From: a virus
Direction: 5' to 3' (one strand)
Length of the DNA: 64,000 bases
IMG/VR virus record: IMGVR_UViG_3300019458_000033
Span: 1 to 64,000 of that record
The number at the start of each line of letters is the position of its first letter. Within the stretch, counting starts at the first letter, position 1. A program made the translations under genes and the position numbers. Below, one piece after another: positions 165-48,755 of the stretch. A model generated the notes under the pieces. It made no database searches. It saw only the letters and a list, made by a program, of their open reading frames with translations, and was not told where the DNA came from.

Positions 165-359
165 GTGGATGAGCCAGGGCACATCGATCGAGTGGACCGA
201 GGACCTGCGGGTCAGGGAGTATCCGCGATGAGGATTGATCGCGAAGGCGGGCTGGTGTGGCTCTACTGCGAGGTGGGCGGGCTGCGGCTGAAGCTGCCGT
301 TTCGCACCGAGTTAGAGGCGCGGTCGTGGTGGTGGAGGCGGGGGAAGGCGGCACAATGA
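165..359 (+). CDS. small hypothetical protein (start uncertain, ATG at 228 also possible)
   Basis: ORF in track. Its TGA overlaps the ATG of the next gene (ATGA at 356-359), suggesting translational coupling. No recognisable motif. Confidence 0.3.
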   Translation: MDEPGHIDRVDRGPAGQGVSAMRIDREGGLVWLYCEVGGLRLKLPFRTELEARSWWWRRGKAAQ

Positions 360-1792
360 ATATAACGGCCTACGAGTTGGCTCAGCGCTATATCGGGATT
401 GCCGAGCTGTCCTCGGCCGGCCGCGACCATCCGCTGATCCAGTGGTGGCTGTCGCTGTGCTCGGGATTTGATATCGAATCCCCCGACGAGACGCCATGGT
501 GTATGTCTGGCGACGTTGAAATTTTAACGTCATCTGGTTTTACCCGCTTTGACCAACTCTCTGATTTTTGCCACGTGGCGCAGGTCGACCCACTATTTGG
601 AATCAGCTTTACCAGGCCGCTGCGCGTCATTCGTAAAAAATACTGCGGGCCCATTGTGTTTTTTAGCAGCCGTAGCCTTTCGATGAGGACCGATCCAGAA
701 CACCGCTTTTGGGGTATCTGGAATAAGGCTGGCGCCATGACAGGCCAGGTGGAAAAACGACCGATCCGCGAATTGTCGAGCGTTCTCCACGTCCCGCGTG
801 TCGCTTCACGAAACGAGGTTGACGACCTGGAATTTAGCGATAGAGAAATTGGCCTGATGGCCGCCTTCCTCTCGGACGGATTTCTGAGGACTGGTGGAAC
901 GGGAAGAATCGCAATCCAGGTAAGCAAGCAACGAAAGATCGACGCCCTTCACTCGCTGGTTCCGAGCAATTGGTATAGGGCGAAAATAGCCTATGGCCAG
1001 AGTACAGTTCCGCTGACAACTTTCGAGTACCAGATTCCGGCATGGCTGAGTAGCGCTTTCGTTGATTACAAAAAACCGAAATGGTCTATCCTGACCACCT
1101 GGAGCCGGCGCCAACTTCAGCACTTTGTCCTGTCTTACGCTACGTTTGACGGCTCGGCGCGTGGAGATCGCCGAATGATCTATACTTCAAGTCCTGATTT
1201 GCGGGATTGGCTCCAGGCGGCAGTGACCCTCGCAGGGTTTCATTCGAGCCAGAGACAAGGCAGCCAAAGCCCGATTAGCGGCCGACCCTGCTATACGATC
1301 AGCTTTAGTACAGCGAAGAGGACGCGGACCATCAGGCGCGGAGACTTTAGCATCGAAAGCGGCGGCGAGGACCTGTTTTGCGTTGAGGTTCCAACGGGGG
1401 TTATCTTGATTAGGGATCCCAATGGGACCGTTCTGCCGGTGGGCAACTGCTCGGCGTTTGTGAACGGCATCGCCTGGGAGCTGCGGCTGCCGCGGTCGAA
1501 ATCTGCCATGGCGCGGTCGTGGCTGGGAGTGGGGCAGGCGGTCGAGGCAGTCGAAGGCTTTCCTTCCGGGCCGCAAATCAGCCGGATCGGCTTTGATGTC
1601 GTCGTGCTCATGCGTGGCAGCGGCGACCAGCCGGGGCCTGATATCGTGGATGCCCCGGGCCATGTCGGCTTTTTTGGCGGCTGGGATGGCGGACGTGTCA
1701 ACGTGCTGGGCGGCAACCAAGGCAATGCCGTCAGCGTCCAGAGCTTTCCAAAAGACCGCATTCTGGGGATCCGGCGCTTGCGCTCGGAGTAG
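356..1792 (+). CDS. NlpC/P60-CHAP-like cell-wall peptidase (TIGR02594-like phage lysin) interrupted by an intein
   Basis: ATG at 356 follows GAAGG. N-extein ends ...SPDETPW. C-extein starts CSAFVNG and carries GHVGFFGG and LGGNQGNAVS, typical of the small phage Cys-His peptidases. The joined exteins give about 162 aa. Confidence 0.8.
   Translation: MNITAYELAQRYIGIAELSSAGRDHPLIQWWLSLCSGFDIESPDETPWCMSGDVEILTSSGFTRFDQLSDFCHVAQVDPLFGISFTRPLRVIRKKYCGPIVFFSSRSLSMRTDPEHRFWGIWNKAGAMTGQVEKRPIRELSSVLHVPRVASRNEVDDLEFSDREIGLMAAFLSDGFLRTGGTGRIAIQVSKQRKIDALHSLVPSNWYRAKIAYGQSTVPLTTFEYQIPAWLSSAFVDYKKPKWSILTTWSRRQLQHFVLSYATFDGSARGDRRMIYTSSPDLRDWLQAAVTLAGFHSSQRQGSQSPISGRPCYTISFSTAKRTRTIRRGDFSIESGGEDLFCVEVPTGVILIRDPNGTVLPVGNCSAFVNGIAWELRLPRSKSAMARSWLGVGQAVEAVEGFPSGPQISRIGFDVVVLMRGSGDQPGPDIVDAPGHVGFFGGWDGGRVNVLGGNQGNAVSVQSFPKDRILGIRRLRSE
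500..1447 (+). mobile_element. intein with double-motif LAGLIDADG homing endonuclease (316 aa)
   Basis: Starts CMSGDVEILTSSG (block A-like) and ends DLFCVEVPTGVILIRDPNGTVLPVGN, followed by the +1 Cys of CSAFVN. Internal LAGLIDADG motifs are IGLMAAFLSDGF and FVLSYATFDGSA. GC is visibly lower than the flanks. Confidence 0.75.
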
Positions 1793-1890: not shown

Positions 1891-2574
1891 TCAGTCCCAG
1901 AACTCGAAGCTGACGTGCTCGATCGTGAACGGCAGAGAGCCCTCAACCGCGGCCAGATTCAAAACCACCGAATCCTGGTAGAAGTAGATCCCACCGATCT
2001 GTGGCCGCTTCAGCTCGATGACCCGCTTGGAGTTATCGGCAGTTTTGGCCAGCAGTTGATGCCGCACCTGAGACGGCGGCGAGAAGGTCTCGACCTCGCC
2101 CGGCCCGGTCACCGCCTGCTCGACGGTAAAGATGACATCGCGCGGCGCGTCGCCCGGGTTGCCGGTCTTCACGGTGACAAAGATGCCCTTGAAGGTGCGG
2201 AAACGTGGACCGATCGACCAGGATGCCACAACCGTGTCGGAAGTGCTACATTCGCCTGACCCGATAATTCCGTGCTTGATCCCCAGGGCGCAAAGCTCAC
2301 CAGATTTAAAGGTCAGCCTCGCCTCGTAGTGGTCCTCGCGCGAGCGCACCTCGCCCATTGGCCCGACAGGGCCAACAGGCCCGGCTGGTCCTGGAGCGCC
2401 CTGGGGCCCGACGATCGACTGCCCCGCCGGCCCCCGTGGCCCGGTCGCGCCCGCCGGCCCTGCCGGGCAGGTGGCCGGGCAGGTTGGCCCCTTTGAGCCG
2501 GTCGAATTTGCGAATTCCGCAAAACCCAAAAGCGCCAAGGCGCAGACGATCACAAAACGTTCGGATCTTTTCAT
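1891..2574 (-). CDS. secreted collagen-like repeat protein
   Basis: Start MKRSERFVIVCALALLGFAEFANS looks like a signal peptide. A G-X-Y run follows (GPAGATGPRGPAG...[19 protein letters not shown]), then a globular C-terminus. ATGA overlap with the upstream gene at 2571-2574. Confidence 0.7.
   Translation of the reverse strand: MKRSERFVIVCALALLGFAEFANSTGSKGPTCPATCPAGPAGATGPRGPAGQSIVGPQGAPGPAGPVGPVGPMGEVRSREDHYEARLTFKSGELCALGIKHGIIGSGECSTSDTVVASWSIGPRFRTFKGIFVTVKTGNPGDAPRDVIFTVEQAVTGPGEVETFSPPSQVRHQLLAKTADNSKRVIELKRPQIGGIYFYQDSVVLNLAAVEGSLPFTIEHVSFEFWD
2353..2460 (-). repeat. collagen-like G-X-Y coding repeats
   Basis: Triplet-periodic Gly in the translation of the - strand gene. Confidence 0.7.
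2508..2522. repeat. palindrome family copy, 1 mismatch (TTGCGAATTCCGCAA)
   Basis: Lies inside the signal-peptide coding region of the - gene, where it reads FAEFAN. Confidence 0.7.
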
Positions 2575-3239
2575 GTCAGTCCAAGCTCCTTTTTGAGTTC
2601 GCGCATCAAGCGCAGGTTCTGTTCGGCCTTTTTGAGCCACGGCCCCACTCCTCGGCCCGCCCGCCAGTCCGCCGCCTCCATGAAGGCAATCCCGGCCCGG
2701 CGCGCGCATTCGCGGTCTTCGTCGCTGTCGCCTACCATCAGGCAGTCTTCCAGATGCACCACCCCGGCCTTCAAGCGGGTGATCACGTTCTGCATTCCGG
2801 CGAAAAGCATACCAGGATTGGGCTTGCGGAAGGCATTCGATTCCTCGTCGCCGGGGCAGATCAGGATGTCGTCAAACATAAAATCGGCCCGCCGGCCGTT
2901 CAAATCAAGCGCCGGCTTCGCCATCCGTCCAGTGCGCCGGGCGACACCGACCGCCATCTCCCAGGTCAAATCGCCCCGGGCCACCCCTTCCTGGTTCGAT
3001 ACCCCCACAATGCGCCAGTAAGCCGCCTTGAACCGGTCCATCATCGCCAACGCCTCCGGGTAGACCGCAACATCCTCGGGGCGGTTGCAAAACCCCGACG
3101 GATCGGTCGAATAACGCACCGTGCCGTCCAGATCCAGAAACAATAAATTCAAGCGTGGCGTACGGGCCATAAGTCTAGAAGTACAAAGGGCCAACTGGGC
3201 TCGCGTGGAAACCAGATTCTCGCTCATGGGACCCATCAT
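2571..3239 (-). CDS. HAD superfamily subfamily IIIA phosphatase (GmhB / polynucleotide 3'-phosphatase-like)
   Basis: HAD motifs are present in order: LFLDLDGT (I), GVSNQ (II), RKPNPGM (III), GDSDEDRECA (IV). An alternative start exists at 3170 (MARTPRL). Confidence 0.75.
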   Translation of the reverse strand: MMGPMSENLVSTRAQLALCTSRLMARTPRLNLLFLDLDGTVRYSTDPSGFCNRPEDVAVYPEALAMMDRFKAAYWRIVGVSNQEGVARGDLTWEMAVGVARRTGRMAKPALDLNGRRADFMFDDILICPGDEESNAFRKPNPGMLFAGMQNVITRLKAGVVHLEDCLMVGDSDEDRECARRAGIAFMEAADWRAGRGVGPWLKKAEQNLRLMRELKKELGLT

Positions 3240-7803: not shown

Positions 7804-8430
7804 ATGAAAAAGGGCCAGCGCCAGATCATCGACGTCACCCCCACGGTAGCTCCCGGCGAGACCCTGCCGGCGAAGCCCGACAAGCCGGGCCGGATGCGCA
7901 CCTACGAATTCCCGATCTCGTTTGACTATCTTGCCAAGGAAATCTTTGGCACCAAGCAGACCGGCCCCGCCGCGCGCGGGCGCTTCATCGACCTGCTGCG
8001 CAATTGCGGCGACGATGAAATCCGCAAGGTGGTAACCCTGTGGGACTCGACGCCGCCATCCAGGCGCAGCAAGTTGCTCATCGAGGACCTCTGCCAGCGA
8101 GCGAACGTCGAATGCCGCTGGCTGGTCGAAAAGGCTGCCGGGCTGATGTTTGACCTGGGCGGCGACGTGTCGAAGATGATTGTGGCGATCTCGCAGCCCG
8201 AGGTGATTCGCAAGACCGTCCAGCAGGCGCTCAAGGCCGATGGGCACAAGGACCGCAAGCTGTTCCTGCAAGGCTCTGGATTTGTGCCCGCGCCGGTCAA
8301 TCAGTTCGGCCTGATGGTCAACAACCAACTGCCGGGGCCCGGCCAGCCGCCCGCGCACGGGCCAGCGCCGATCACCAACGTACTGTCAATCGAAGAGCAG
8401 AATATGGCCGAAGACCAGTTTGGGGAGTAG
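7804..8430 (+). CDS. hypothetical protein
   Basis: ORF in track, co-oriented. No motif recognised; a small-terminase role cannot be supported from sequence alone. Confidence 0.55.
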   Translation: MKKGQRQIIDVTPTVAPGETLPAKPDKPGRMRTYEFPISFDYLAKEIFGTKQTGPAARGRFIDLLRNCGDDEIRKVVTLWDSTPPSRRSKLLIEDLCQRANVECRWLVEKAAGLMFDLGGDVSKMIVAISQPEVIRKTVQQALKADGHKDRKLFLQGSGFVPAPVNQFGLMVNNQLPGPGQPPAHGPAPITNVLSIEEQNMAEDQFGE

Positions 8431-8439
8431 ATTATATAG

Positions 8440-9198
8440 ATGGCTACGTCACCCAGGATCGTGTGTTTCTTCTCATGCGGGGCCGCATCAGCGGTAGCCA
8501 CAAAACTGATTCTGTCGAAATACGACCGGTCAAGGGTAGTAATTCTGAATGCATTCATCCTGGAAGAGCATCCCGACAATCGTCGCTTCCTAACCGACTG
8601 TGAAAAGTGGTTCAACCACCCGATCACGATTTTGCGCGACGAGAAGTGGAGCGCCTCAGTTCATGAGATTTGGCGTCAAAAGCGGTACATCGTTAACGGG
8701 ATATATGGGGCTCCGTGCTCCGCGCATCTCAAAAGAGACGTGCTAGAAGCTGCCTGCTTGCCGGATGACATTTATGCCTTCGGTTACACAGCAGACCCAA
8801 AAGACGTTAGGCGCTCCGAGCGGCGCAGGGGGCCACAAGCCCTATTCCCCCTGATTGAAGCAAACCTCACCCATAACGATTGTCTGGCGATGGTTGAGCG
8901 GGCTGGGATTAGACTGCCAGAAATGTACCGACTTGGCTTCAACAACGCGAACTGTATTGGCTGCTGCAAGGGCGGCGAGGGCTACTGGAACAAGATTCGA
9001 GAGGTTTTCCCGGAGAGATTTGCTGAGGTGGTTCAGATCCAAGAGGCAATCGGACCTGGTTCTTACATGTTTCGCAACCGGAAGACCGGCGAGCGCTTCG
9101 CGCTGAAGGATCTTCCGGTTGGGGCTGGCCGCCACGATGAGCCGCTACCCAACTGCTCCATTTTCTGCGACTTAGCGGAGCAGGATATGAATCAATAA
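8440..9198 (+). CDS. PAPS-reductase-like PP-loop ATPase family protein
   Basis: N-terminal IVCFFSCGAASAV resembles the SGGxDS PP-loop. Cys cluster NANCIGCCKGGEGYW. GC lower than its neighbours. Confidence 0.55.
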   Translation: MATSPRIVCFFSCGAASAVATKLILSKYDRSRVVILNAFILEEHPDNRRFLTDCEKWFNHPITILRDEKWSASVHEIWRQKRYIVNGIYGAPCSAHLKRDVLEAACLPDDIYAFGYTADPKDVRRSERRRGPQALFPLIEANLTHNDCLAMVERAGIRLPEMYRLGFNNANCIGCCKGGEGYWNKIREVFPERFAEVVQIQEAIGPGSYMFRNRKTGERFALKDLPVGAGRHDEPLPNCSIFCDLAEQDMNQ

Positions 9199-9200
9199 AT

Positions 9201-9215
9201 TTGCGGAATCCGCAA
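9201..9215. repeat. palindrome family copy, perfect
   Basis: Starts 2 nt after the stop at 9198 and ends 17 nt before the ATG at 9233. Confidence 0.9.
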
Positions 9216-9232
9216 AAACAGAAAGGTATTCC

Positions 9233-9934
9233 ATGGGAAACGTTTATCAGATCCAAAATCCTGTCACCGGAAATCCCTACACCGTCGCGGATGGCCCGGT
9301 GCCAGGATTTGTCCTGGCTCCCGAGCGGTGGCGCTCGCAATATGCGCCCTATTGGCAGGTGTCGCCGTTCATGCCCGCGCCGTGGACGGCCTTCCCGCTC
9401 GATCCGGTGGAGCACGACGCCAAGCAAGAGCAGTTTGAGCGCGTGCAGGGCGTGATGCTGACCCGCAAGCAGTGGAACGACGCGGGCGGCTCAAACGCCG
9501 ACTACAAGCCGTTTTTGAGCCGCTACGGCCAGGACTACGAGTATTTCCTGGGGATCATTGACCCGATCCCCGCTGATCTGGCGGCGGGCATCGCCGCGCA
9601 CCAGCAGATGTGGGACGCCTACGGGCTGGGTTTGGCCGGCTGCAACGGCTTTGTGAATCGCGGCGCTGACCAGGCCGGGCGGCCCGAGATCGTCAACCTG
9701 TTTTTCGAGGACGCGCCGCTGCCGCCGCCCGCGTCGAAGCGAAGCGGCCGGCTGAAGTGGCGTAAGGAAGACGTGACGCCCGAGGCCCTTTCAAATAGCG
9801 CTGTCTGGGCGAACCAGTGCGTTATCGACTACCAGAAGGCGCTGATCGACGGCGGCATCTACGTGCCGCTACTGCACCCGCACGCGCCGGGTGAGTTGCA
9901 GCAGCGCAATGCGGCCCTGGCCCCGAAGGGCTAA
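9233..9934 (+). CDS. hypothetical protein
   Basis: ORF in track; GAAAGG upstream. Confidence 0.6.
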   Translation: MGNVYQIQNPVTGNPYTVADGPVPGFVLAPERWRSQYAPYWQVSPFMPAPWTAFPLDPVEHDAKQEQFERVQGVMLTRKQWNDAGGSNADYKPFLSRYGQDYEYFLGIIDPIPADLAAGIAAHQQMWDAYGLGLAGCNGFVNRGADQAGRPEIVNLFFEDAPLPPPASKRSGRLKWRKEDVTPEALSNSAVWANQCVIDYQKALIDGGIYVPLLHPHAPGELQQRNAALAPKG

Positions 9935-25800: not shown

Positions 25801-28800
25801 ATGCGAAGAATTATCCTGCTGGCTTTGCTGTGCGCTGCTCCCTTGGCGGCCCAGGGAACGATCTCGTCTTTGCAGTGCCTTAAGCGCGACCGTGCCGTGA
25901 TGATGCGCTGGATCGTGACGCCGGCGCTCAGCAACGACGCCGTGCGGTGCGCCTACGACTACGACACCGTCTCGCTTGACCGCCGCACCCGTCAGATGAG
26001 CGCGTTTTCCGCCAACAGCGGCAGGCGCTCATGCGTCATGTATGACCTAACCCCAGACGATGACGTTTACCTCGGGCCGCAGGTGTCTGATTCCAGCAAA
26101 ACGTTGTGGTCACCGTTCCCAATCTGTTCCGGAGCCTGCACGAATTGTGACAGCAGCGATGATTTATTCTTCCTTTTCGGCGGTAGCGGGTGTGACTGTG
26201 GCGGCGTCGGAGAGTACCCAAAGGTTCACACGGACGCCGAAGACTCCGACCCCACCCCAGATCCGCCGACCACGAACGCGGCAGTCATCCCGCCAGTAGT
26301 CACCGGGCAGACATTCACCGTAGCTTCCGATTGCAGCGACTTCGAGGATCGCAAAAACGATGCTGAGGCCGATGCGGCTTCCGCGCCGAACAGGGTGAGC
26401 GAGTTGCTCGTTCCACCGCAAGGTCCTAACGGCGACGTAGAGTGTGCCCTCAACAAGGCCACGACGTTTCAGCTTGAGCCGATCGCCAATAACGGCAAGG
26501 TGTACATGCACGCGAACGTGGACCCGAAACTGGTGCCGCCTCCTGGAGCGCAAATTGATAAGACCTATCTGCCGTTCCTAGCCGCCTTTACATGGACCGC
26601 CGGAGGGCTACAGGATGCGGACGGCTACAGCCCGTTTTTCGAGGCGCAGGCCAACGCTCGCGGCTACTACATCCGGCACATCGAGGTCCGGCCACCAAAG
26701 TGGCAAACCCATACGCCGATCGTGCTCACCGTAACCGGCGTCAACCAATCGACCGATGTCATCACGGCGAGCGCGACGATTCCCTCGACGATCTCCAACG
26801 GCATGACGGTGATTTCTGACTTGGGATCGACCGGCATTCGCGGCGGGCAAGGCATTTTCAACATCTGCGCGATTTCCGGGGCCACGTTCAAGCTCTCGGT
26901 TGGCATGAGCACGACGACCAACAGCAGCTCGTGCGGCACGGTTGCTGACTTGGTCGGGACGTATGGCTCGGGGGGAACGGTCCAGCGCGTGGTCGCTCTG
27001 CCAATCACGGGCCACGGTGAATCGGGAGGGTTCCACACCGTCACGGTCACCGGGCACAAGCTCCCCACCTATCTTTCGATGGCGATTACGGCCGGTTCTG
27101 GGACCACGATTACCGTTTCTGGAACGCCTGGCGAATACCAAATCGGGAACAGCGCATTTGTTACCCGCAACGCGAGGGCGGTCATCGTCGAAGGAACCGG
27201 CGTGGGCTCCTGCAACGGCCTTTGGCAGGCGACGGTCTCTGGTTCTGTCATCACACTGACTCGCACAGGCAGCACGGCGAACTGCAACACCGTGTCCAGC
27301 GGGACCGTGCGCGGGATCAGGGCTATCTCAATTTTTAAGACGAACAGCGACACCATCGGCGACCACGAGCCACAGTCGCACAACTACGCAGCGCTCGATG
27401 CGAACACACTTCAATTACTTGAGGTTCCCGCGCAGCCTGGAGTCACTGGCGGCTATCTGTTTTGGGACCTGGAGATGTCAGGGCGGCTGATCAACGCGAA
27501 TGCCGCGCCTGACTCAGCGCCTCTGCGGGATGTCACCTTCGACCAAATCGTCGTGAACTGGTGCATGCCATACCGTTCCAGTATCTACAGCATTTTCAAC
27601 AGCGTGGACGTGGCAATCGTCAACTCACACCAGGACATCTGCTCCTACATCCGCGAGAATCCGGTGTCGGCCAGCAGCGATGGCATCCAGGAAAAAGTGT
27701 GGCCGGGAGACGGCGGCTGGTACATTGACCCGCGAGACACCGATGGTCTCGTGATAAAGAACAACTACCTGAGCGACACATTTCTATTTAATGACGATTC
27801 TACAGGCGGCAACCGAACACAGGTCGAAGACTTCACCTTCTCGCAAAACGCTATCTGGAAGCAGGATTGGAAAATCAAATCGACCGCGCTATTCCGAAGG
27901 CATTTCTTTCGGCAAGGCTTCTTTGTCGAGCAAAAGTCGGCCGGTCCGAGAATGCTGATGCGCGGCAACTATTTCAAGGGCTGGCTCTCTGATTTCCAGC
28001 AGACTGCTGCCGCTGTCGCCCTGTCAGCCAACGGCTCACAAAGCGCTGTGCCCAACGGCGCAGCGCACTGGAACATCGAGTACAACGTATTCGATCGCGG
28101 CGGCACGCTGTTCGCTTTCACGCAGGCCAACGACGGTACGTATGGTGCCCAAAAGTTATTCAATATCCACGAGAAATTCCGCATCGCCCACAATCTCGGC
28201 GTGCGTATTGACGTTCCCAAGTACAAAAGCGGGCAGGCCGGAGCCTCTACTGGAGGGTTTCTGATTGCGTCCCATGGATATCGGGATTTTGTAGTCGAGA
28301 GAGATACTTGGATTCCTGAGCGTGTAAACCAGGGCAACGTATTCGCTTTCGGAACGCACCGCAATTCAGGCCTTAGGGTCCTTAACAACATTCTCGGGTT
28401 CACCGAAGGTTGGTTCAATACGTTCATCGGCATCGATGCCGGCGTGCCGATCACTGGCGGCCTGCCGGTCATGTCAGAAAACAGCGGCTATGCTGCGCTG
28501 CAGGCCTTCCATATTCGCGGGACCTCGACCGACCCGCTGACAGACGTTTCGGGTAACATCGGCATCCCGATGCTCAAGACTTCATCGTCTGGAACGTTTG
28601 CGGTCAAGGCGGCGAGCCCCAATATCGCCGATGCCCATTGCGTTGACTCTGTTTCGTCACTTGCCAAAGTACTCAATATTCCAATGACATGGGTCGGTGA
28701 CCCGAATCCCTGCCCGAGCTCTTTGGTCGAGACGGTTGCCGATCGCCTGAACAGCGTGTTCGAGCCCGGGACCTGGATGCCGAAGCCTGCATATTCAGGA

Positions 28801-29127
28801 AAGGGTGCTGACATCCAAGGCATTGCCGATGCCATGGGTCAGCCCGGCCCGGTGACAGTGACCGCCGACAATGATGAGTTCACACTGAGCTTCCACGCTC
28901 CCTCAACCACCGGCTGCTACGGCCAACGCGCCGTGTTCGATACCGACTGGGCGACGACGTGGAGCGAAGCGAACCTGGCGAACATGTCGAATTGGATTCA
29001 GGACGCCAGCGCCTCGCAGACGCAGTCGATCAATTTGCCAGGTCTTGCTGCCGGGACGCGGTATCTCTGGCGGCTGTATTGCTCGAAGGGAGCGATCGGG
29101 GATATGACGACCGAGGGGACGCCCTAA
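25801..29127 (+). CDS. large structural protein with signal peptide (tailspike/depolymerase candidate)
   Basis: N-terminus MRRIILLALLCAAPLAAQG, 1108 aa. Beta-rich repetitive middle and an FN3-like C-terminus. The function call is inference only. Confidence 0.6.
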   Translation: MRRIILLALLCAAPLAAQGTISSLQCLKRDRAVMMRWIVTPALSNDAVRCAYDYDTVSLDRRTRQMSAFSANSGRRSCVMYDLTPDDDVYLGPQVSDSSKTLWSPFPICSGACTNCDSSDDLFFLFGGSGCDCGGVGEYPKVHTDAEDSDPTPDPPTTNAAVIPPVVTGQTFTVASDCSDFEDRKNDAEADAASAPNRVSELLVPPQGPNGDVECALNKATTFQLEPIANNGKVYMHANVDPKLVPPPGAQIDKTYLPFLAAFTWTAGGLQDADGYSPFFEAQANARGYYIRHIEVRPPKWQTHTPIVLTVTGVNQSTDVITASATIPSTISNGMTVISDLGSTGIRGGQGIFNICAISGATFKLSVGMSTTTNSSSCGTVADLVGTYGSGGTVQRVVALPITGHGESGGFHTVTVTGHKLPTYLSMAITAGSGTTITVSGTPGEYQIGNSAFVTRNARAVIVEGTGVGSCNGLWQATVSGSVITLTRTGSTANCNTVSSGTVRGIRAISIFKTNSDTIGDHEPQSHNYAALDANTLQLLEVPAQPGVTGGYLFWDLEMSGRLINANAAPDSAPLRDVTFDQIVVNWCMPYRSSIYSIFNSVDVAIVNSHQDICSYIRENPVSASSDGIQEKVWPGDGGWYIDPRDTDGLVIKNNYLSDTFLFNDDSTGGNRTQVEDFTFSQNAIWKQDWKIKSTALFRRHFFRQGFFVEQKSAGPRMLMRGNYFKGWLSDFQQTAAAVALSANGSQSAVPNGAAHWNIEYNVFDRGGTLFAFTQANDGTYGAQKLFNIHEKFRIAHNLGVRIDVPKYKSGQAGASTGGFLIASHGYRDFVVERDTWIPERVNQGNVFAFGTHRNSGLRVLNNILGFTEGWFNTFIGIDAGVPITGGLPVMSENSGYAALQAFHIRGTSTDPLTDVSGNIGIPMLKTSSSGTFAVKAASPNIADAHCVDSVSSLAKVLNIPMTWVGDPNPCPSSLVETVADRLNSVFEPGTWMPKPAYSGKGADIQGIADAMGQPGPVTVTADNDEFTLSFHAPSTTGCYGQRAVFDTDWATTWSEANLANMSNWIQDASASQTQSINLPGLAAGTRYLWRLYCSKGAIGDMTTEGTP

Positions 29128-41120: not shown

Positions 41121-44100
41121 ATGCCCACTGGTGCCGAGCGCGAATTCTACGAATCCCTGAAAAAGACGCGGCTTCTACCATCTGAAGCTCGCGAGATTTG
41201 GGACGCCCGCTCGGATCAGTCCAAACTCCAGCAGGCTCTCACCCGCTACCGGAACTACATCCCCGACGCCCTCCGCGGCGAGATCAACGAGCGCGCCCGC
41301 AACACAGCACTTGAGATTACGGGCTCCTCGCCCGCTGGCCGCGCCGCGCGGCTGATGTCCACCTTCGGTATCGAGGCAAAGCCCGAGCCCGTTCAGCCCG
41401 CCCCCGGCGCGCCGATGACATTCGGCGAGATCGGCCGCTCGGTCGCCGAGGGCCTGCCGATCAAACCCACTATCACCGGCAAGACGCCCGGCGGTGCGCT
41501 GGGCCAGTTCGCCCTGGGGACCGAAGAGCGCCCGACACTACTGGGTGGGGCGCTGCGCTCCAGCCGCGCGATCGAGCCACTGAGCGAAGTTCCCGGCATG
41601 CTGCTTGAGCCGGCGGTCGATGTTACTGCCCTGACGCCAGAGCGGGGCGCGGCGCGCGGAGTTGCGGAATTCGCAACCGGGATGGCATCGCCTGCTGGCC
41701 TTGCGCTTGGCGCTCTGGGCCTGCCAGCCATTGGCGCAACCGCCGGCTCACGGCTGCTGTCGCAGATGGCGGCGCGGCTGGGCTTGGGCGCATCGCTGGC
41801 CTACGAGGCTGGCAAGCGCGTTCCTGGGTTCTTCGAGCGACTCAATGAGATCGTCAAGCCTGGCAGCGATCCTGAACTCGTCAAGATCCAGCAGGAAGAA
41901 ATGACGCAGGCGTTGCTGGAGAGCGCGACAGGCCTCGGCCTGATCCGCTCGGGTCTTGGGCCGCTGCGAAGCGTCGCGCGCGCCGGGGCTGCTCCTAAAG
42001 CCGCCGCTGGCGTAGCTGGCGCGCGCGCAGGGCTGCCGCCTCCACGCCCGCCGGGCATTGAGGCTCCCAGACCCCTAATCGAGCCTCCTGGGCCACGCAC
42101 GGCGACCGGACGCAGGCCGCCTGCCGGTGCGCCGCGCGCCATGCCTGGCCAGCGCCCACCGGCCGCGCCACGCTTCCGGCCCGACCAGCCGGTGTTGCGC
42201 CGCGATCTGCCGCCCATGCCCGGCAAGAGTCCATTCCCGCCGCTGCCCACGGGTGCGCCAGGGATGCCGCCGATGCGCCAGCGGCCCAAGGGCTTCCTGC
42301 CCCGTGGCGCGTTTCAGATGGGGCCCGCAGCGGGCGTGCCGCAGGACCTCGAAGCGACTGGCGGGGCGCCGCCGCGCGCGCTCGACTTCACGCCTTCGGA
42401 CATGGCAAAGCCGGGCGGCTCGCAGCCGCTGTCGCGCGGCCGGCCGGTTTGGATGAAGGCGGGCGAGTCGTCGGTAATGGGTGAGTGGGCTGTCGTGCGC
42501 AACCGGGACCTGGTGACGTCGAACTCGTCGGCGCTGGTGGAGAACCCCGACTATCCGCAGTTTCTCCAGAACCGCGATCGTTCGTCGCGGGCTTCAGAGG
42601 CCTCGATCCGCCAGATTCAGTCGCGGCTCGACCCGGAGCAGTTGGGCGAAAGCTATCTGGCGTCGGATGGCGCGCCTGTTATTGGCGGCGACATGGTGGT
42701 CGAGGCGGGCAACGGCCGCACAATCGCCCTGCGGCGCGAGTACGACTCCGAGACGCCGCGCGCGGCGCGCTACAGGGACTGGCTGCTGAAAAACGCCGAG
42801 CGCTTCGGCGTCGACCCCAAGGCCATCGAGAGCGTCCCCGATCCTCAGCTTGTGCGAATCCGCTCGGATGCGAACCCGATCGACCGGATGGAGTTTGCCA
42901 GGTTGGCGAACGTGTCGCAGGTCGCCCAACTCTCCCCCGCCGAGCTTGCCTCGCAGGACGCCGCACGGATGCCGCCGCGGCTGCTTGAGTTGTTCGACAC
43001 CGAATCCGAGGCCGGGCTGCTGGCCGAATCAAACCGTGACTTTGTGCGCGGCTTCGCCGAGACGCTGGTCGAGCCGTCCGAGCAGCCTGGGTTCATGGCC
43101 GCTGGCGGGGAGCTATCCTCGCAAGGGCTGACGCGCGTGCGCAACGCGATCATCGCCAAAGCCTACGGCGACCCGCAGATTCTGGCGCGAGTTGCGGAAT
43201 CCGCAAACGACGAGCAGAAAAACATCCTGGGCGCGCTGGTTGGCGCGGCCCCGAGAATGGTCTATTCCCAGAAGGGCATCGCCGACGGCGTGTTTCATGA
43301 CCTGCCGATTCACCAGGACGCGGCGCGCGCGGCAAACCTGATGACGGAGCTTGCCGGCCGCGGCTTCACGGTCGAGGATTTCGTCCGCCAGCAATCGCTA
43401 TTTGCGACAGGCCGCGAGTTGACGGCCGAGCAGGAAGCCATCGCGCGCTACTTCGAGGCAAATGCCCGTTCGCCGCGCAAGCTGCAGGCCTATCTCGACA
43501 ACTACAACGAGGCGCTGGTGGCGGCCGGCAACCCGCGGCAGAGCGCCATCTTTGGCGGTCGGCCGCCATCCAGGGTTGACCTGCTCGAAGCCGCGCGGCA
43601 GGTGACGGAGGCCGAGTATGCAGAAAAAGCCAGACAACGCAAAGGGCTCAGGGAAGCCGAAGCCAAACCCGGTCGTCGTGCGCAGGTTGGTCAGAAGGAT
43701 GCAGGCCTTAAAGCGCGCCTCGGCGACCGCCAACTCCAGCCGTTCCAAGGCTCATTCAAAAACCCCGTAGACCTGATGCAGGGCGCGGACATGGTGTACC
43801 GCAAGCCGCGCAAGAATCGGCCGGGCATGTTGTTCGTCAATGAAGGCGGCTCAGCGCTTGTCGAAATCATGTCAGGCCACATGGGCTCGGGCCAGTTGCT
43901 CGGAGCGCAGATTCCTGAGAAAGCCTCCCGCTCGATGCTCAAGAGGATGGACGAGGTTATCGGCAGGGAAACGACACAGCTATTGCCCTGGGTGCGTGAT
44001 AAATTGCAACTGATGCGTCTTGAGATGCAGCGCGCGCTGGACGATAACGGACAGATTCTCGTGGCACGTGCCGATCGCCCGATGGGCGAAGTTAAAGAGA

Positions 44101-47100
44101 CCATCAGGCACGAGCGCGCCCACTACTTCATGGAAGCGCTAGGCCTGAAGGTAGATCCCGTCGCGCTCCTGTCCGACCCACTGTTCTACGATTACGGGCA
44201 CGAGTTAACCAAACTCGGCTACGGCAATGCCAACGCCCGCCAGATTGTCGAAGAAATTGCCAACTATGCGATGGCTGGCCGTGGGAACTGGAAGCAGATC
44301 GGTATGCCGCGCGTCGACGCGCGGCAAGTCGTCGCCTCATGGATCATGCACCTGGCCGAGCGAAACGGCTCCGCTGCTTTTGCCGTCTCAGAAATGGCGA
44401 GCCCCGAACTGTTTGAGACGGTTCGCATAGTCCGCGAACAGGCTTCTGAAGCCTTTGGGATTGATTATGACCCTGCCACCGTTGCCCAACAAATCGAAGC
44501 TCTTGTCGGTGGAGGACGCCCAGCGGGCGGCCTTGAACATGCAGCGCCTGCTGAAGGCGGCGCAGGCGGGGGGCCGCCAGGCGGTACTGGAGGAATTCGA
44601 CCGCCTGTTCCCGGAGACACCGGAGGACCGGGCGGACCCAACTTCGCCCTCCGCCGCCCCCGGCTCGACCCCAAAATCGAGCAACAGCTTGCCGCAACTG
44701 CCAAAAAAGCCAATGCCCTGACGCGCGCTAAAGACTTCCTGGGCGAGCGCTTCATTCACGAGTGGAAGGTCCGCCACCTGCCGGAATTCTCGAACCGCCT
44801 CCGGCTGTTCCGCGGCGCTGGCATCGATTCTGCCCGGCGCGCGGTCACCCAACTGGAAACGGTGCTCGAAGGCTTGCGGCGCGACGAGTATAAGCAGTTC
44901 TTCTCGCCGCTGGCAATCCTTTACGACTTCCGCGCCACGGCACAGCGCGGGCTGGGATTGCCGAACGACATTGACCCGGTGGCGGTCGATCAGGCTATTG
45001 CGGCGCTCGAAAAGGCTGCGCCGAAGCCTGTCTTTGCGGCGCTGGCCCGCCACATGGATCTGGTGCAGCGCGAGGTGGGTGCCGACCTGGTGGCCCGCGG
45101 CAAGATCACGCCCGGGGCGGCCGCCTCGCCTTACTTCCCGCACATGGTGATGGACTATTCGGAGCGGCTGGGCGAGATGGCCTGGATGCCGTCGCGGCTG
45201 CGCACGCCGGGCCGGCGCTACGCCCGCAAGCGTTCCGGCTCGAAGCGGCTCATCAACCCCGACTACATCGATGTCATGTACAAGCACCTGATGCGGGTGC
45301 ACCTCGACAACGCCGTCGATGACTTCATCCAGGGCGTGGCGAACGACTACGACCAGTTGGGCTCGCTCACGCCGCAGGAGCGGCTGAACCTGTTCGGCAA
45401 GACGCGGCAACCGCGACCTGATGAACTCGTTGAGATCCAGAGGCTTGTCACGCGCACCGTTGCCGGCCCGCGTGGGCCTGTCGTGCAGCGATCTCTTGAG
45501 ACGGTGACACTCGTTGGCTGGTCGCCCAACCCCGGCAACCGCTTCGAGAACGTCAACACGATCACCGACGCGCGGCTCGACAAGGCGAAGGCCCAGCAGA
45601 TGACCGCCGACCAGATGGAGCAGGCCGGCATGTTCGGCGAGCGGCTGGCGATGGCGGGACCAACCAAGACCTACCTGCTTGAGCCTGCGATCGCCGAGCG
45701 GCTCAACAAGTTCCGCGAGCCCAAGCAGAACTCGATCCTGATGGACTTGCCCTACGGCACGCCTGAGTGGAAGCGCTGGACGCTCGCTTGGGCAGGGTTG
45801 CCGTTCCAGGTGCACAATTTTGTCGGTGACGCCGCGGCGGCCTATCTGTTCATGCCGAGTTACGTGGGCCTCGTTGTCGGCAATGCCGCCGGCACGGTGA
45901 TCGGTGGCCTGCTCGGTGGACCTGCGGGTGCGATCATTGGCGGATACGGCGGCTCGATCCTCGGCGGTGCGATGGGCATCGAGTTCTTCGAGGCAATCCA
46001 GGTGCTATCGGCCAACCCCCCGCCGCATCTGGCCGGCATCAAGGACATGATGTACGCGCAGCGCGTCGTCGAGACGTCGACGCTGCAGGGCGGCGAAGTC
46101 CTTGGGCAGGTTCCCCGACCGGAGTTGTCGCGCAAGATCGGGCCACTGGTGCCTTTTGAAAACCCCTACATCGAAAAGGTGTTCGGCGGCTGGAAAGGCG
46201 CATGGGCGAAGTGGAATCCGCTGCACCTGTACGAGACGGCCGGCACCTACAGGGAGAGCTTGCTGCGCACGGCAATCTTTCTTCGTGGCATGAAGAAAAT
46301 CCAGGCTGGCCAGTACGCTCAACTCGAAAGGCGCATGGCGAAGATGTTCAAGGTCAGCGGCCTGAAGCCTATCGACGTAGTCGGCAAGGCCAGCCGGCGG
46401 CTGCTGGTCGATTACGGGGAATCAGCCCCAGTCTACGAGCGTGAGGTGCGCGGGCTGGTGCTACCGTTTGTTCATTGGGCAGCGTCGATGACCTACAATG
46501 TCGGCCGCTACGCCTGGAATTTTCCGTTTGAATTGGCGGCAAAGATCGGTATCCCGCTGACGCTGCTCTACCTGTGGAATACGATGGGCGACCGCGCCGA
46601 AAGCGAAGCCAACGCTCCAGACTATCTGCGGTCGATGACGCACTTCAACACCGGCTGGCGCGACGACGAAGGCAAAGAGATCTGGATCGCCTTCGAGAAT
46701 CCCTGGGACATGTTCGCGCGGGTGTTTGGGTTCGACAAGGCGCGGGACTATTTCGAGCAAGTCGAGCGTGGGGAGATTACGCCTCTCGATGCCGGGGCAA
46801 AGTTCGCACGCGACGTGATGATTGGCAAAGCTGGGCCGTTGGCTGTAGCCCACGACATGCTGCACCCGGTTGCGAAAATCTTAGAAGGCTGGGCGTCGGG
46901 AAAGGACCAGTTTTCCGGCCGGCCCATCTGCCCGCCGTCGATCGAGGGCACCGGCGAATGCGCAATGATAAAAGGCATGTGGGGTGTCGGGCAGCTGTTC
47001 TCACCAGTGGGAGCGTTTCTGAGGGCTGAGAACGTTGTCGGAGAAGGTGGCCCGCTGAGGCGCACGCTGCAGCGACCGATCGACTGGCAGCGCGCGCTGG

Positions 47101-47522
47101 GGATCTACAAGGTGGACCCCTACCAAAACGCCGTCCGCCGCAACTACGAGTCGCAGGCTGAGGCTGAGGCTGGCTATAACGAGATGATGTACCGGCTCGA
47201 AACCGCGCTGATCGCCCGCGAGACCATGGGCGACGTCGAGAGCTTCTACAAAGAGGACTTCGACCGGATCGTCAACGAATACCCGTTCGGCGGTAGCCGT
47301 GTGGCCATGGACATCGTCAAGCGGCAGAAGTCGGTCGGGTTCCAGGCGCGGCGCACGCGCGAGATGCTCATCAAAGGCGACCTGACAGAGGCCCAGCGCG
47401 AGCAGTTGAAGCGCCAACTCGAAGCGCTCCAGGACCGCCAGATGATCGAGTCTCGCAAGAATATCCGCGTTGGGGCGCGGCCCGTGCTGCCACCGCTGCC
47501 GGCGCCCGAGCAGGAGCCCTGA
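41121..47522 (+). CDS. giant multi-domain (polyvalent-type) internal/ejected protein, 2133 aa
   Basis: ParB/Srx-like segment (FLQNRDR...VVEAGNGRTIALRRE). HExxH zincin motif HERAH at 44109-44123. Pro-rich linker around 42000-42300. Gly-zipper hydrophobic block VVGNAAGTVIGGLLGGPAGAIIGGYGGSILGGAMG. Confidence 0.7.
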   Translation: MPTGAEREFYESLKKTRLLPSEAREIWDARSDQSKLQQALTRYRNYIPDALRGEINERARNTALEITGSSPAGRAARLMSTFGIEAKPEPVQPAPGAPMTFGEIGRSVAEGLPIKPTITGKTPGGALGQFALGTEERPTLLGGALRSSRAIEPLSEVPGMLLEPAVDVTALTPERGAARGVAEFATGMASPAGLALGALGLPAIGATAGSRLLSQMAARLGLGASLAYEAGKRVPGFFERLNEIVKPGSDPELVKIQQEEMTQALLESATGLGLIRSGLGPLRSVARAGAAPKAAAGVAGARAGLPPPRPPGIEAPRPLIEPPGPRTATGRRPPAGAPRAMPGQRPPAAPRFRPDQPVLRRDLPPMPGKSPFPPLPTGAPGMPPMRQRPKGFLPRGAFQMGPAAGVPQDLEATGGAPPRALDFTPSDMAKPGGSQPLSRGRPVWMKAGESSVMGEWAVVRNRDLVTSNSSALVENPDYPQFLQNRDRSSRASEASIRQIQSRLDPEQLGESYLASDGAPVIGGDMVVEAGNGRTIALRREYDSETPRAARYRDWLLKNAERFGVDPKAIESVPDPQLVRIRSDANPIDRMEFARLANVSQVAQLSPAELASQDAARMPPRLLELFDTESEAGLLAESNRDFVRGFAETLVEPSEQPGFMAAGGELSSQGLTRVRNAIIAKAYGDPQILARVAESANDEQKNILGALVGAAPRMVYSQKGIADGVFHDLPIHQDAARAANLMTELAGRGFTVEDFVRQQSLFATGRELTAEQEAIARYFEANARSPRKLQAYLDNYNEALVAAGNPRQSAIFGGRPPSRVDLLEAARQVTEAEYAEKARQRKGLREAEAKPGRRAQVGQKDAGLKARLGDRQLQPFQGSFKNPVDLMQGADMVYRKPRKNRPGMLFVNEGGSALVEIMSGHMGSGQLLGAQIPEKASRSMLKRMDEVIGRETTQLLPWVRDKLQLMRLEMQRALDDNGQILVARADRPMGEVKETIRHERAHYFMEALGLKVDPVALLSDPLFYDYGHELTKLGYGNANARQIVEEIANYAMAGRGNWKQIGMPRVDARQVVASWIMHLAERNGSAAFAVSEMASPELFETVRIVREQASEAFGIDYDPATVAQQIEALVGGGRPAGGLEHAAPAEGGAGGGPPGGTGGIRPPVPGDTGGPGGPNFALRRPRLDPKIEQQLAATAKKANALTRAKDFLGERFIHEWKVRHLPEFSNRLRLFRGAGIDSARRAVTQLETVLEGLRRDEYKQFFSPLAILYDFRATAQRGLGLPNDIDPVAVDQAIAALEKAAPKPVFAALARHMDLVQREVGADLVARGKITPGAAASPYFPHMVMDYSERLGEMAWMPSRLRTPGRRYARKRSGSKRLINPDYIDVMYKHLMRVHLDNAVDDFIQGVANDYDQLGSLTPQERLNLFGKTRQPRPDELVEIQRLVTRTVAGPRGPVVQRSLETVTLVGWSPNPGNRFENVNTITDARLDKAKAQQMTADQMEQAGMFGERLAMAGPTKTYLLEPAIAERLNKFREPKQNSILMDLPYGTPEWKRWTLAWAGLPFQVHNFVGDAAAAYLFMPSYVGLVVGNAAGTVIGGLLGGPAGAIIGGYGGSILGGAMGIEFFEAIQVLSANPPPHLAGIKDMMYAQRVVETSTLQGGEVLGQVPRPELSRKIGPLVPFENPYIEKVFGGWKGAWAKWNPLHLYETAGTYRESLLRTAIFLRGMKKIQAGQYAQLERRMAKMFKVSGLKPIDVVGKASRRLLVDYGESAPVYEREVRGLVLPFVHWAASMTYNVGRYAWNFPFELAAKIGIPLTLLYLWNTMGDRAESEANAPDYLRSMTHFNTGWRDDEGKEIWIAFENPWDMFARVFGFDKARDYFEQVERGEITPLDAGAKFARDVMIGKAGPLAVAHDMLHPVAKILEGWASGKDQFSGRPICPPSIEGTGECAMIKGMWGVGQLFSPVGAFLRAENVVGEGGPLRRTLQRPIDWQRALGIYKVDPYQNAVRRNYESQAEAEAGYNEMMYRLETALIARETMGDVESFYKEDFDRIVNEYPFGGSRVAMDIVKRQKSVGFQARRTREMLIKGDLTEAQREQLKRQLEALQDRQMIESRKNIRVGARPVLPPLPAPEQEP
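41662..41676. repeat. palindrome family copy, 1 mismatch (TTGCGGAATTCGCAA), intragenic
   Basis: Reads VAEFAT. Confidence 0.7.
43192..43206. repeat. palindrome family copy, perfect, intragenic
   Basis: Reads VAESAN. Confidence 0.9.
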
Positions 47523-47913: not shown

Positions 47914-48561
47914 TTGATCCAGCCAAACGTTCTTGTCGGCCTACTACTGGCTATAATTGCCTGTACGGTTGGAATCCAGTTCGCTATTCTCCAGATCGCC
48001 TTCGGGTACTGGCGGCCGGATTGGCGGCTGTGGATACGCCGCGGCGGCCACATGGTCATGTTCATGATGGTGCTGGTGGCTGGCGGCGGCAGCCAGAATA
48101 CTCCGGCGCAAGCCCAGCAGGACGCGACCACGCGCCGCGTCGAGCGGCTTGAGGATCAGGCGACTGGGTTCACCGCAACCGATGCCGACCTGAAGGCCAT
48201 CGTCGCGCAGCAGAAAGACATGCTGCAGCAGTTGATTGCCACAAACGCCAAACAGGACGAGCGAATCAACGTCAACACCGACACATTGCAAAAAATCTCG
48301 ATCGCCGCCGACACAATAAAGGAATCCCAGGATCAATTCGCCGACCGTGTGACTTGGGTCGGCGGACTGCTGACAACGGCGGTTATTTTGGCTGGTTTTT
48401 TCCTGGACAGGCTCCGGGAACGCAGAATGCGCAACGGGCACAGCCCGTTCACCGAGCCGTTTGTAAAGCTGGAAAAGAAGATGGCGGAAGGTCGCAGCGA
48501 GACTAACGAGTTACTGCGGCAGTTGCTTGATGTCCAGACTGGAAGAAGGAGAACACGATGA
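47914..48561 (+). CDS. membrane protein with coiled-coil ectodomain
   Basis: Two N-terminal TM segments and one C-terminal TM segment. TTG start. Confidence 0.5.
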   Translation: MIQPNVLVGLLLAIIACTVGIQFAILQIAFGYWRPDWRLWIRRGGHMVMFMMVLVAGGGSQNTPAQAQQDATTRRVERLEDQATGFTATDADLKAIVAQQKDMLQQLIATNAKQDERINVNTDTLQKISIAADTIKESQDQFADRVTWVGGLLTTAVILAGFFLDRLRERRMRNGHSPFTEPFVKLEKKMAEGRSETNELLRQLLDVQTGRRRTR

Positions 48562-48755
48562 AACACCTGATCGATTGGAGCCCTATCGGGCTGTTCATTG
48601 TCGGAGCGCTGGCCATCGGCGGCGCGCTGCTGAAGGTGGCGGGGATCGACCCGCAGTCGTTCCGCCAGAACGGGATGGAGCAGTTGATTGCCTGCGCCGG
48701 GTGCCCGGAGCCGCCTTGCCCCTCGCCATTCCCAGGGATCTGCGAGGATAGCTAG
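48558..48755 (+). CDS. small membrane protein, Cys-rich tail
   Basis: ATGA overlap with the upstream gene. Contains IGLFIVGALAIGGALLKV. It is the last + strand gene. Confidence 0.5.
   Translation: MKHLIDWSPIGLFIVGALAIGGALLKVAGIDPQSFRQNGMEQLIACAGCPEPPCPSPFPGICEDS

Follow-up and report, generated by a model that had tools for sequence, protein, structure and literature searches.

The great majority of known phage and bacterial inteins reside in proteins for DNA replication and repair, for nucleotide metabolism or for packaging. The survey of phage inteins by Kelley et al. (2016, PMC5050341) contains no lysin host, and none of the 19 host proteins of the 784 inteins compiled by Gosselin et al. 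(2025, bioRxiv 10.1101/2025.01.02.630785) is a lysin. Inteins were found in 0 of 224 mycobacteriophage Lysin A genes (Payne and Hatfull 2012, PMC3314691), and Novikova (2016) makes no mention of peptidoglycan, lysin or lysozyme. We found no report of an intein in a lysin in the literature, subscription journals lying mostly outside the search. Here, we describe a 316-residue insert that interrupts a predicted phage cell-wall peptidase exactly before its conserved Cys and that is best explained as an intein. It is encoded in a stretch of 64,000 nucleotides (positions 1 to 64,000 of the IMG/VR virus record IMGVR_UViG_3300019458_000033), referred to as the window. An earlier note on this DNA, made from the letters alone, had called a LAGLIDADG intein in a lysin and had considered such a host unusual, which the two phage-intein surveys and the Lysin A count support. 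The lineage to which the insert belongs would extend the range of intein hosts to the lysis machinery.

The closest described systems are the intein of mycobacteriophage Bethlehem gp51 (a recombination directionality factor (RDF)/metallophosphoesterase) and its sisters in other phage proteins. They resemble the present insert in length (about 310-330 amino acids), in Cys1, in the nested double LAGLIDADG nuclease, in a block F of the form ...(V/L)xC(V/L)xVP... and in the C-terminus (T/V)-G-N, and their homology to it covers the full length (tblastn, about 25% identity at 100% coverage). Alignment of the gp51 intein with the lysin-intein family by hhalign spanned 297 columns (probability 99.3%, E = 1.9e-20) and included the common ending ...VWCLRVPNG...LTGN. 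The present insert falls into one phage clade with the Bethlehem gp51 intein and is an element of a known kind, a LAGLIDADG intein. The hosts of the gp51-type sisters act on DNA, nucleotides or ATP, whereas the present host is a cell-wall peptidase. Also unlike in the gp51-type relatives, the +1 residue is always Cys in the lysin-hosted lineage, where it doubles as the predicted nucleophile of the enzyme.

More distant counterparts are PI-SceI from yeast VMA1 and the archaeal inteins TliVMA, PhoVMA and PI-PkoII. These have the same architecture, a Hint domain split by a LAGLIDADG nuclease (template modelling (TM) scores of about 0.53-0.61, normalised by query), but share only 10-12% sequence identity with the insert and are larger (361-537 residues in solved chains). 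PI-SceI and the three archaeal inteins also have a penultimate His and extra DNA-recognition regions. In class 3 inteins, such as the AceL NrdHF split intein and the Bethlehem DnaB intein, the Cys at position 4 of block F is invariant, as in the lysin-hosted lineage; they lack a nucleophile at position 1, however, where the lysin-hosted lineage always has Cys. AceL NrdHF, whose solved chain is a C124A variant, additionally ends in a C-terminus of the Thr-Gly-Asn type and was the best sequence-profile match of the insert family in the PDB (E = 0.0024). A phage-associated origin has been proposed for class 3 inteins (PMC5050341). The group I introns of Staphylococcus phage K and its relatives, which carry homing endonucleases, are likewise homing elements in a lysis gene whose removal is needed for an active enzyme (PMC5526547), but they are removed from RNA, whereas the present element would leave at the protein level.

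The insert is part of a 478-amino-acid precursor encoded by the open reading frame (ORF) 356-1792 on the + strand. The ORF finder lists 257..1792 (+), with an upstream GTG as start; we consider ATG 356 the likely and best-supported start because intein-less homologues begin with MNITAF... at this place. The insert runs from CMSGDVEIL to LPVGN, and CSAFVNG... starts at precursor residue 365. The predicted features are, with 75 representatives of the lysin-hosted family (see below) as the basis for residue counts:

356..499 (+): N-extein, 48 amino acids (MNITAYELAQ...SPDETPW), N-terminal part of the TIGR02594/NlpC-P60-CHAP-type peptidase; aligns with the N-termini of intein-less homologues
500..1447 (+): intein, 316 amino acids (precursor residues 49-364), predicted Hint domain with nested double-motif LAGLIDADG homing endonuclease; absent in intein-less homologues and identified by model, Foldseek, profiles and hhalign
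500..538 (+): splicing block A, CMSGDVEILTSSG, with Cys1 (500-502) as predicted first nucleophile; Cys in 75/75
677..715 (+): splicing block B, LSMRTDPEHRFWG, with His68 at B:10 (75/75) and Asp65 (692-694) at B:7, where Thr is usual
815..1324 (+): LAGLIDADG homing endonuclease domain, approximately intein residues 106-275; alternating helix and strand in the model, Foldseek matches to I-DmoI and I-Tsp061I
854..883 (+): LAGLIDADG motif 1, LMAAFLSDGF, intein residues 119-128 with Asp126-Gly127, ending the predicted helix 114-126; Asp in 74/75, Gly in 75/75
1130..1156 (+): LAGLIDADG motif 2, LSYATFDGS, intein residues 211-219 with Asp217-Gly218, ending the predicted helix 203-217; Asp in 74/75, Gly in 74/75
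1367..1414 (+): splicing block F, EDLFCVEVPTGVILIR, with the invariant Cys294 (1379-1381); Cys in 75/75, aligned with the Cys124 position of AceL NrdHF
1424..1447 (+): splicing block G, GTVLPVGN, with penultimate Gly315 and terminal Asn316; each in 75/75
1448..1792 (+): C-extein, 114 amino acids and stop codon, with the predicted triad residues Cys+1 (1448-1450), His (1661-1663) and Asn (1715-1717)

Removal of the insert in silico yields a protein of 162 amino acids, with the insertion point between Trp48 and the conserved Cys. A search with this spliced protein retrieved 1894 relatives; all 120 of these that were listed are 144-183 amino acids long and cover 97-100% of the query. When nine intein-less homologues (147-166 amino acids, 58-74% identical) were aligned with the precursor, a single gap appeared, which extends from the invariant Trp48 to the invariant Cys and corresponds exactly to the insert. 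The profiles gave the same picture. NCBIfam TIGR02594 aligns to the spliced protein without interruption (profile positions 4-131 of 132, 64.3 bits, E = 1.3e-17), whereas its match to the unspliced precursor falls into two pieces (46.2 bits), and phrog_1259 ('baseplate hub subunit and tail lysozyme') is matched contiguously by the spliced extein, with a higher score than by the precursor. The same gene was assembled in independent samples. The ORF, the insert coordinates and length, and the position of CMSGDVEIL...PVGN directly before the Cys of CSAFVN thus agree exactly with those given in the earlier note, and the comparison with intein-less peptidases that it had proposed shows a clean one-gap insertion at the Cys.

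The insert is also a low-GC island relative to its exteins, as had been noticed before. Its GC content is 0.537 (0.595 at third codon positions, GC3), compared with 0.638 (GC3 0.765) for the exteins and a mean of 0.617 for the window; among 1262 segments of 948 nucleotides, only two had a GC content below that of the intein.

A protein search found 15 relatives that are 32-56% identical, all within proteins of 467-518 amino acids. Three of the five PDB matches of the resulting 15-insert profile are inteins, namely AceL NrdHF, the V-ATPase intein chain 7qss and the Spl DnaX mini-intein. Searches against PHROGs gave weak matches alone, to thymidylate synthase and PhoH-like families, and an oligoribonuclease match of the insert in a single-sequence phmmer search against the PDB was dismissed as chance. 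The AlphaFold2 model of the insert, built on the 15-sequence alignment, reached a predicted local distance difference test (pLDDT) score of 93.9 and a predicted TM score (pTM) of 0.92 and shows two Hint half-domains flanking the nuclease. The 14 best Foldseek matches of this model in the PDB were all LAGLIDADG inteins (TliVMA, PI-SceI, PhoVMA and PI-PkoII; E = 4.6e-13 to 1.4e-8), followed by the free-standing nucleases I-DmoI (E about 3e-5) and I-Tsp061I, which match over about 175 columns, and by the AceL NrdHF intein. Among the predicted viral structures of BFVD, almost all of the top 50 matches are intein-bearing proteins (including ribonucleotide reductase, DNA polymerase, methylase, portal, TerL and phosphoesterase). 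A search of nucleotides 1-2500 against Rfam, run as an intron check, gave no family match at E up to 1. Since family profile, modelled fold and structure matches agree and no intron model matches, the insert is, judged by its predicted fold, a full-length intein comprising a Hint domain with a nested two-motif LAGLIDADG nuclease. Both of the LAGLIDADG motifs named in the earlier note were located in the model, each at the end of a predicted helix, and its reading of the insert as a LAGLIDADG intein is upheld by the fold comparison.

To describe the family, an exhaustive search with a hidden Markov model (HMM) was run over 1.84 billion cluster representatives. With E limited to 0.001, it returned 14,215 matches, of which 428 reached 1e-30 or below; the family counts are drawn from the best 150 of the 14,215 matches, which were parsed, together with the first 15 relatives. 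In this set, 75 full-length representatives have the same junction, (P/A)(W/Y)^C...GN^C (with ^ marking the extein-intein boundaries), followed by the CHAP-like sequence (S/A/G)(A/S)F, which gives a lysin-hosted lineage of at least 75 clusters at 50% identity. Most of these 75 proteins are 450-560 amino acids long, a few 600-1525. Cys1, the block-B His, the block-F Cys (F:4), the penultimate Gly (G:6), the terminal Asn (G:7) and Cys+1 are each present in 75/75, both LAGLIDADG Asp residues in 74/75 each, and a Lys of the nuclease domain in 73/75. Whole-protein identity among the first 15 intein-bearing relatives is only about 31-55%. Because the splice and nuclease residues stay fixed while overall identity is low, the alignments argue for purifying selection on both splicing and nuclease activity. 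The lysin-hosted intein is a sizeable lineage and not a singleton.

The hosts within this lineage are diverse. Spliced exteins of distant members match Pfam CHAP with 27-36 bits (cut-off 26). In three of these exteins, PG_binding_1 is matched as well, at the N-terminus, and two of the three matches exceed the cut-off for that domain. An N-terminal PG_binding_1 combined with CHAP is a common endolysin layout. Since the distant spliced exteins match Pfam CHAP, one and the same intein occupies this Cys in a wide range of CHAP-type wall hydrolases. The homing nuclease would then have followed one short motif (...PW^C(S/A)AF...) through very different CHAP-type proteins, including modular PG-binding ones and proteins of more than 1000 amino acids.

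Four long family members, P0162 (1072 amino acids), P0164 (1525), P0153 (749) and P0147 (673), carry the same intein in a CHAP-type domain that is internal or C-terminal; P0164 contains long Gly-rich and charged repeat regions. Instead of endolysins, these long proteins may be wall hydrolases that are associated with the virion or resemble tape-measure proteins.

In IMG/VR, four related loci bear the intein. None of the GenBank phage records searched covers 80% or more of the precursor. The best BFVD match (E = 4.8e-30, TM 0.89, 29% identity) is the UniProt entry A0A8S5NZS4 of Myoviridae sp. ctLnO19, a protein of 561 amino acids from a virome assembly. Its name and length suggest a peptidase of the same kind that carries the same intein; it differs from the present gene in belonging to another phage, in being longer and in being named 'TIGR02594 family protein' without mention of an intein. 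New here are the class of host gene and the size of the lineage; at least one such protein is already in UniProt under this family name. Genes of this kind are labelled "hypothetical" or plainly "TIGR02594 family protein", and their length hides the small lysin.

In 185,579 species genomes, a pattern scan detected no allele with the intein; this absence is weak evidence because only two peptide patterns were used. The scan did detect 327 relatives of the spliced extein, the closest in metagenome-assembled genomes (MAGs) of Vicinamibacterales. One acidobacterial Vicinamibacterales MAG (contigs CBDFLL010000003, 5 and 6) contains at least six separate intein-less TIGR02594 homologues. The six are 52-54% identical to the spliced extein and lie at scattered chromosomal sites. 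A small peptidase is not usually present in so many copies, and the six could represent prophages, type VI secretion system (T6SS) effectors or another repeated element; their presence may also hint at the host phylum of the present phage.

With respect to the host protein, Cys49, His120 and Asn138 (numbering of the spliced protein) are invariant in 42 sequences, i.e. the spliced extein and 41 intein-less homologues, and the same Cys, His and Asn are invariant in 15 intein-bearing proteins. Cys+1 is thus presumably also the catalytic nucleophile of the peptidase. The best of five AlphaFold2 models of the spliced extein had a pLDDT of 90.1 (59-72 for the other four); in the extein model, the Cys starts a helix and the His starts a strand. 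This arrangement is that of papain-like NlpC/P60 enzymes. The PDB structures best matched by the extein model were Trichomonas vaginalis NlpC1 and NlpC2, the CHAP endolysin Ly7917, the Bacillus cereus NlpC/P60 protein BCE_2878 and the endolysin PlyGRCS. Comparison of the extein with the PDB by sequence, as a single sequence or as a 42-sequence profile, gave nothing meaningful, and the CHAP score of the precursor was 13.7 bits. The assignment of the host as a peptidase is well supported, and the homologue alignments and fold matches are in line with the earlier placement of the insert exactly before the conserved Cys of an NlpC/P60-CHAP-type enzyme.

Proteins with TIGR02594 have been annotated as endolysins adjoining holin and Rz/Rz1 genes in phage genomes (PMC5418858, PMC10709362), and papers on T6SS treat the TIGR02594 domain as an NlpC/P60 peptidoglycan peptidase. 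Intein-less homologues occur in different settings: in one phage (L095) directly after tail genes, and in a second phage, whose genes also include an SU10-type capsid gene, amid short ORFs of which one is TatA-like, in the neighbourhood of small membrane proteins. By analogy, we infer that the gene is the endolysin of this phage and that its peptidase would act in lysis.

Overall, a class 1-type intein in a phage peptidase, located between Trp48 and the conserved Cys, is the best explanation of the data, and we hold it with high confidence; splicing, nuclease activity and the role of the host protein as a lysis enzyme are predictions that follow this reading. The 478-amino-acid precursor would be translated with its peptidase fold split at the nucleophile. 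Since the residue that completes splicing is also the nucleophile of the enzyme, the unspliced protein would presumably be inactive. Cys1 would then undergo an N-S acyl shift, Cys+1, also the predicted catalytic Cys, would take over the N-extein by trans-thioesterification, Asn316 would cyclise without the help of a penultimate His, and an S-N shift would restore ...DETPW-CSAFVN.... The sizes expected after splicing are about 18 kDa for the peptidase and about 35 kDa for the released intein. In co-infecting phages, the LAGLIDADG nuclease would cut the uninterrupted allele, ...CCATGG^TGCTCGGCG..., and the intein would be copied in (homing). Such homing would explain the spread of the intein over diverse lysins as well as its foreign base composition.

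The reconstituted empty site of 60 bp reads GATATCGAATCCCCCGACGAGACGCCATGG^TGCTCGGCGTTTGTGAACGGCATCGCCTGG. The empty site in the phage L095 is identical to it at 50 of 60 nucleotides, with 29 of 30 on the 3' side, and is a candidate target. On the best-supported reading, the target of homing is the stretch that encodes the conserved ...PW^C(S/A)AF... in CHAP-type lysins.

The Cys with its dual role in splicing and predicted catalysis makes this family a natural test case for the regulation of host proteins by inteins. Possibly, the intein even serves as a post-translational lysis gate: with the catalytic nucleophile locked as the +1 residue, active lysin would appear only under set conditions late in infection, Cys1, Cys294 and Cys+1 could render splicing sensitive to redox state or timing, and the block B Asp and the fixed Gly would tune its rate. 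We regard this extension as rather unlikely. As a possible tool, the family offers a ready-made design for lysins that become active only after splicing.

Several observations weigh against a conventional class 1 intein in an endolysin: (i) neither Hint nor LAGLIDADG was detected when the insert was compared with the Pfam and NCBIfam HMMs; (ii) the penultimate His of textbook class 1 inteins is replaced by Gly in all 140 aligned inteins, 75/75 lysin-hosted and 65/65 sister inteins; (iii) at block B position 7, where Thr is usual (59/65 sisters), 67/75 lysin-hosted inteins have Asp, including the present copy (Asp65); (iv) an invariant block-F Cys is what marks class 3 inteins, yet here it occurs along with a Cys1 that is never missing; (v) the TIGR02594 score of the spliced extein lies below the NCBI cut-off of 70.55, at full-length coverage; (vi) the fold matches of the extein are weak (best E = 3.2e-3); and (vii) no recognisable holin or spanin gene lies next to the lysin gene, and the small ORFs upstream lack membrane segments.

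Concerning (i), the HMM search suggested in the earlier note failed with Pfam and NCBIfam, whereas family profile, fold comparison and hhalign did detect an intein; a check by curated HMMs alone would have failed. PF14528 is recorded for one homologue, while the present copy has no Pfam match. Concerning (vii), the missing neighbours are the reason why the endolysin role is assigned by analogy only.

The penultimate Gly is a trait of the clade with experimental precedent and not a defect, because it is fixed in all 140 aligned inteins and because a Gly-bearing homologue splices. The Bethlehem gp51 intein, with its native penultimate Gly, spliced completely in E. coli and was slowed by G316H (PMC5050341), and Kelley et al. 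(2016, PMC5050341) report little conservation of the penultimate His among the class 1 inteins of mycobacteriophages. The earlier note had remarked on the Gly as departing from the usual His; its presence is confirmed, but it is no oddity of this copy. The sister set consists of the 65 next-best inteins, which reside in other host proteins; Gly-Asn and Cys1 are found in 65/65 each and the block-F Cys in 60/65. Examples with their C-terminal junctions are:

Cali gp3 nucleotidyltransferase (GenBank phage): ...MHGN^T
KIL1 (Pseudomonas phage) primase/helicase (GenBank phage): ...ITGN^T
Willsammy DNA methylase (GenBank phage): ...ITGN^S
Ruotula gp57 DnaG-type primase (GenBank phage): ...VTGN^C
Prevotella phage Lak-A2 (a Lak megaphage) ClpX-like ATPase, 735 amino acids (MK250019.1, 1048-3255, unannotated record): FLDE^CFDGNTEV...VTVTGN^CDKIA, with Cys1, block-F Cys and Gly-Asn

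The Lak-A2 gene had appeared as a lysin match reaching into the N-extein; this candidate was rejected, as the gene encodes a ClpX-like ATPase with a sister intein. In the Thr-x-x-His of block B, the His is retained throughout the lysin-hosted lineage (75/75), while the Thr position is mostly Asp, also in the present copy. The Asp could have co-adapted with the Trp at position -1, or it could adjust how fast splicing proceeds.

Because of the block B Asp and the block-F Cys, a class 3-like or redox-modulated mechanism was kept as a minor rival. Splicing would then be started by Cys294 instead of Cys1, through a branched thioester, or the two Cys would act as a redox-sensitive pair that modulates splicing. 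Conservation of the block-F Cys in both the lysin-hosted and the sister inteins is consistent with this, as are the alignment of Cys294 with the Cys124 position of AceL NrdHF, whose C-terminus is also Thr-Gly-Asn, and remnants of the Trp-Cys-Thr motif (Trp at B:12 in 19/75, Thr at G:5 in 35/75); the redox variant can point to disulfide-bonded precursor conformers in the gp51 G316H mutant (Kelley 2016, PMC5050341). Class 3 inteins are defined, however, by the lack of a position-1 nucleophile (PMC5050341), whereas Cys1 is present in 75/75 here, and in place of the class 3 motif Trp(B:12)-Cys(F:4)-Thr(G:5) the present copy has Phe, Cys and Val together with Cys1. The homologous gp51 intein is treated as class 1 (Kelley 2016, PMC5050341). 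We therefore consider class 3-like chemistry quite unlikely, although the order of the nucleophilic steps is not certain, given that the invariant block-F Cys is a class 3 hallmark. A decayed, splicing-dead intein, leaving either a pseudogene-like dead lysin or a 478-amino-acid protein that works unspliced, could account for the non-canonical B:7 Asp and penultimate Gly and for the lack of curated HMM matches on the insert, and another lysin could exist among the many unannotated genes of the phage. Yet the ORF is intact, the splice-junction and nuclease Asp residues are conserved over 75 clusters whose identity is otherwise only about 30-57%, the extein triad is conserved in intein-bearing alleles too, and a homologue with penultimate Gly splices fully, which makes a dead element very unlikely.

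The class 1-type intein is also challenged by two readings that differ in the nature of the element. Hint domains of secreted or cell-surface proteins often cleave without ligation (bacterial intein-like (BIL) domains), and side reactions are seen in some inteins without a penultimate His; a cleavage-only Hint domain of this type would release fragments and leave the peptidase halves unligated. Here, the flanks jointly form one compact peptidase domain of 162 amino acids with uninterrupted homologues; split apart, one half would be without the N-terminal helices and the other without the context of the nucleophile. The terminal Asn and Cys+1 are invariant, and the nested homing endonuclease is typical of true inteins, so that we find cleavage without ligation highly improbable. 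Finally, the insert might be a group I or II intron with an in-frame LAGLIDADG ORF, for which the group I introns in the lysin genes of Staphylococcus phages K and G1 offer a precedent (PMC5526547), or a free-standing nuclease gene fused to the lysin by a sequencing error. The Rfam search of nucleotides 1-2500 was empty, no break interrupts the reading frame, the modelled nuclease lies between Hint half-domains, and the same in-frame junction recurs in 75 clusters; a fusion error is further opposed by the assembly of the same gene in independent samples. This possibility is practically negligible.

The window is part of a tailed-phage genome, with a portal gene (phrog_156), a major head protein gene (phrog_9953) and an SU10-type adaptor gene (PF24175); most of the other large ORFs in the window had no Pfam or PHROG match. 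In further assemblies of this phage (68,111, 68,129 and 19,665 nucleotides), the map is circularly permuted, and the end of the window joins its start through about 4 kb that include a gene for an AAA ATPase of 512 amino acids. Blocks of leftward genes lie on both sides of the lysin gene, which is nearly on its own on the + strand.

A pair of overlapping ORFs at 47914-48755 (+) follows an ORF of 2133 amino acids (41121-47522) and thereby lies behind the tail genes. One encodes 215 amino acids with hydrophobic segments near both ends, the other 65 amino acids with a hydrophobic segment at the N-terminus and a tail that is rich in Cys and Pro and includes LIAC. Neither had a family match; they are possible lysis partners of the holin or spanin type, and on the circular map about 24 kb separate them from the lysin.

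Two further low-GC regions were noted. The island at 8150-9450 reaches a minimum GC of 0.534, as low as the intein, and includes the ORF 8440-9198 (+), which encodes a phosphoadenosine-phosphosulfate-reductase-like protein (phrog_424, E = 3.3e-46) and is probably a horizontally acquired auxiliary gene. The stretch at 27250-28800 (GC about 0.54) lies inside the ORF 25801-29127 (+), whose 1108-amino-acid product has no Pfam or PHROG match, and could be an inserted or swapped domain. A six-frame hmmsearch of the window, this stretch included, found no second copy of the lysin-intein family.

Immediately downstream of the lysin gene, the ORF 1891-2709 (-) encodes a collagen-like protein with Gly-X-Y repeats and a weak match to Pfam Collagen, and the ORF 2571-3239 (-) encodes a hydrolase resembling haloacid dehalogenases (HAD) and polynucleotide-kinase-3'-phosphatases. 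As listed, the two overlap by about 140 nucleotides, because of which the true start of the collagen-like ORF is probably later; in another assembly, this ORF is called at 227 amino acids.

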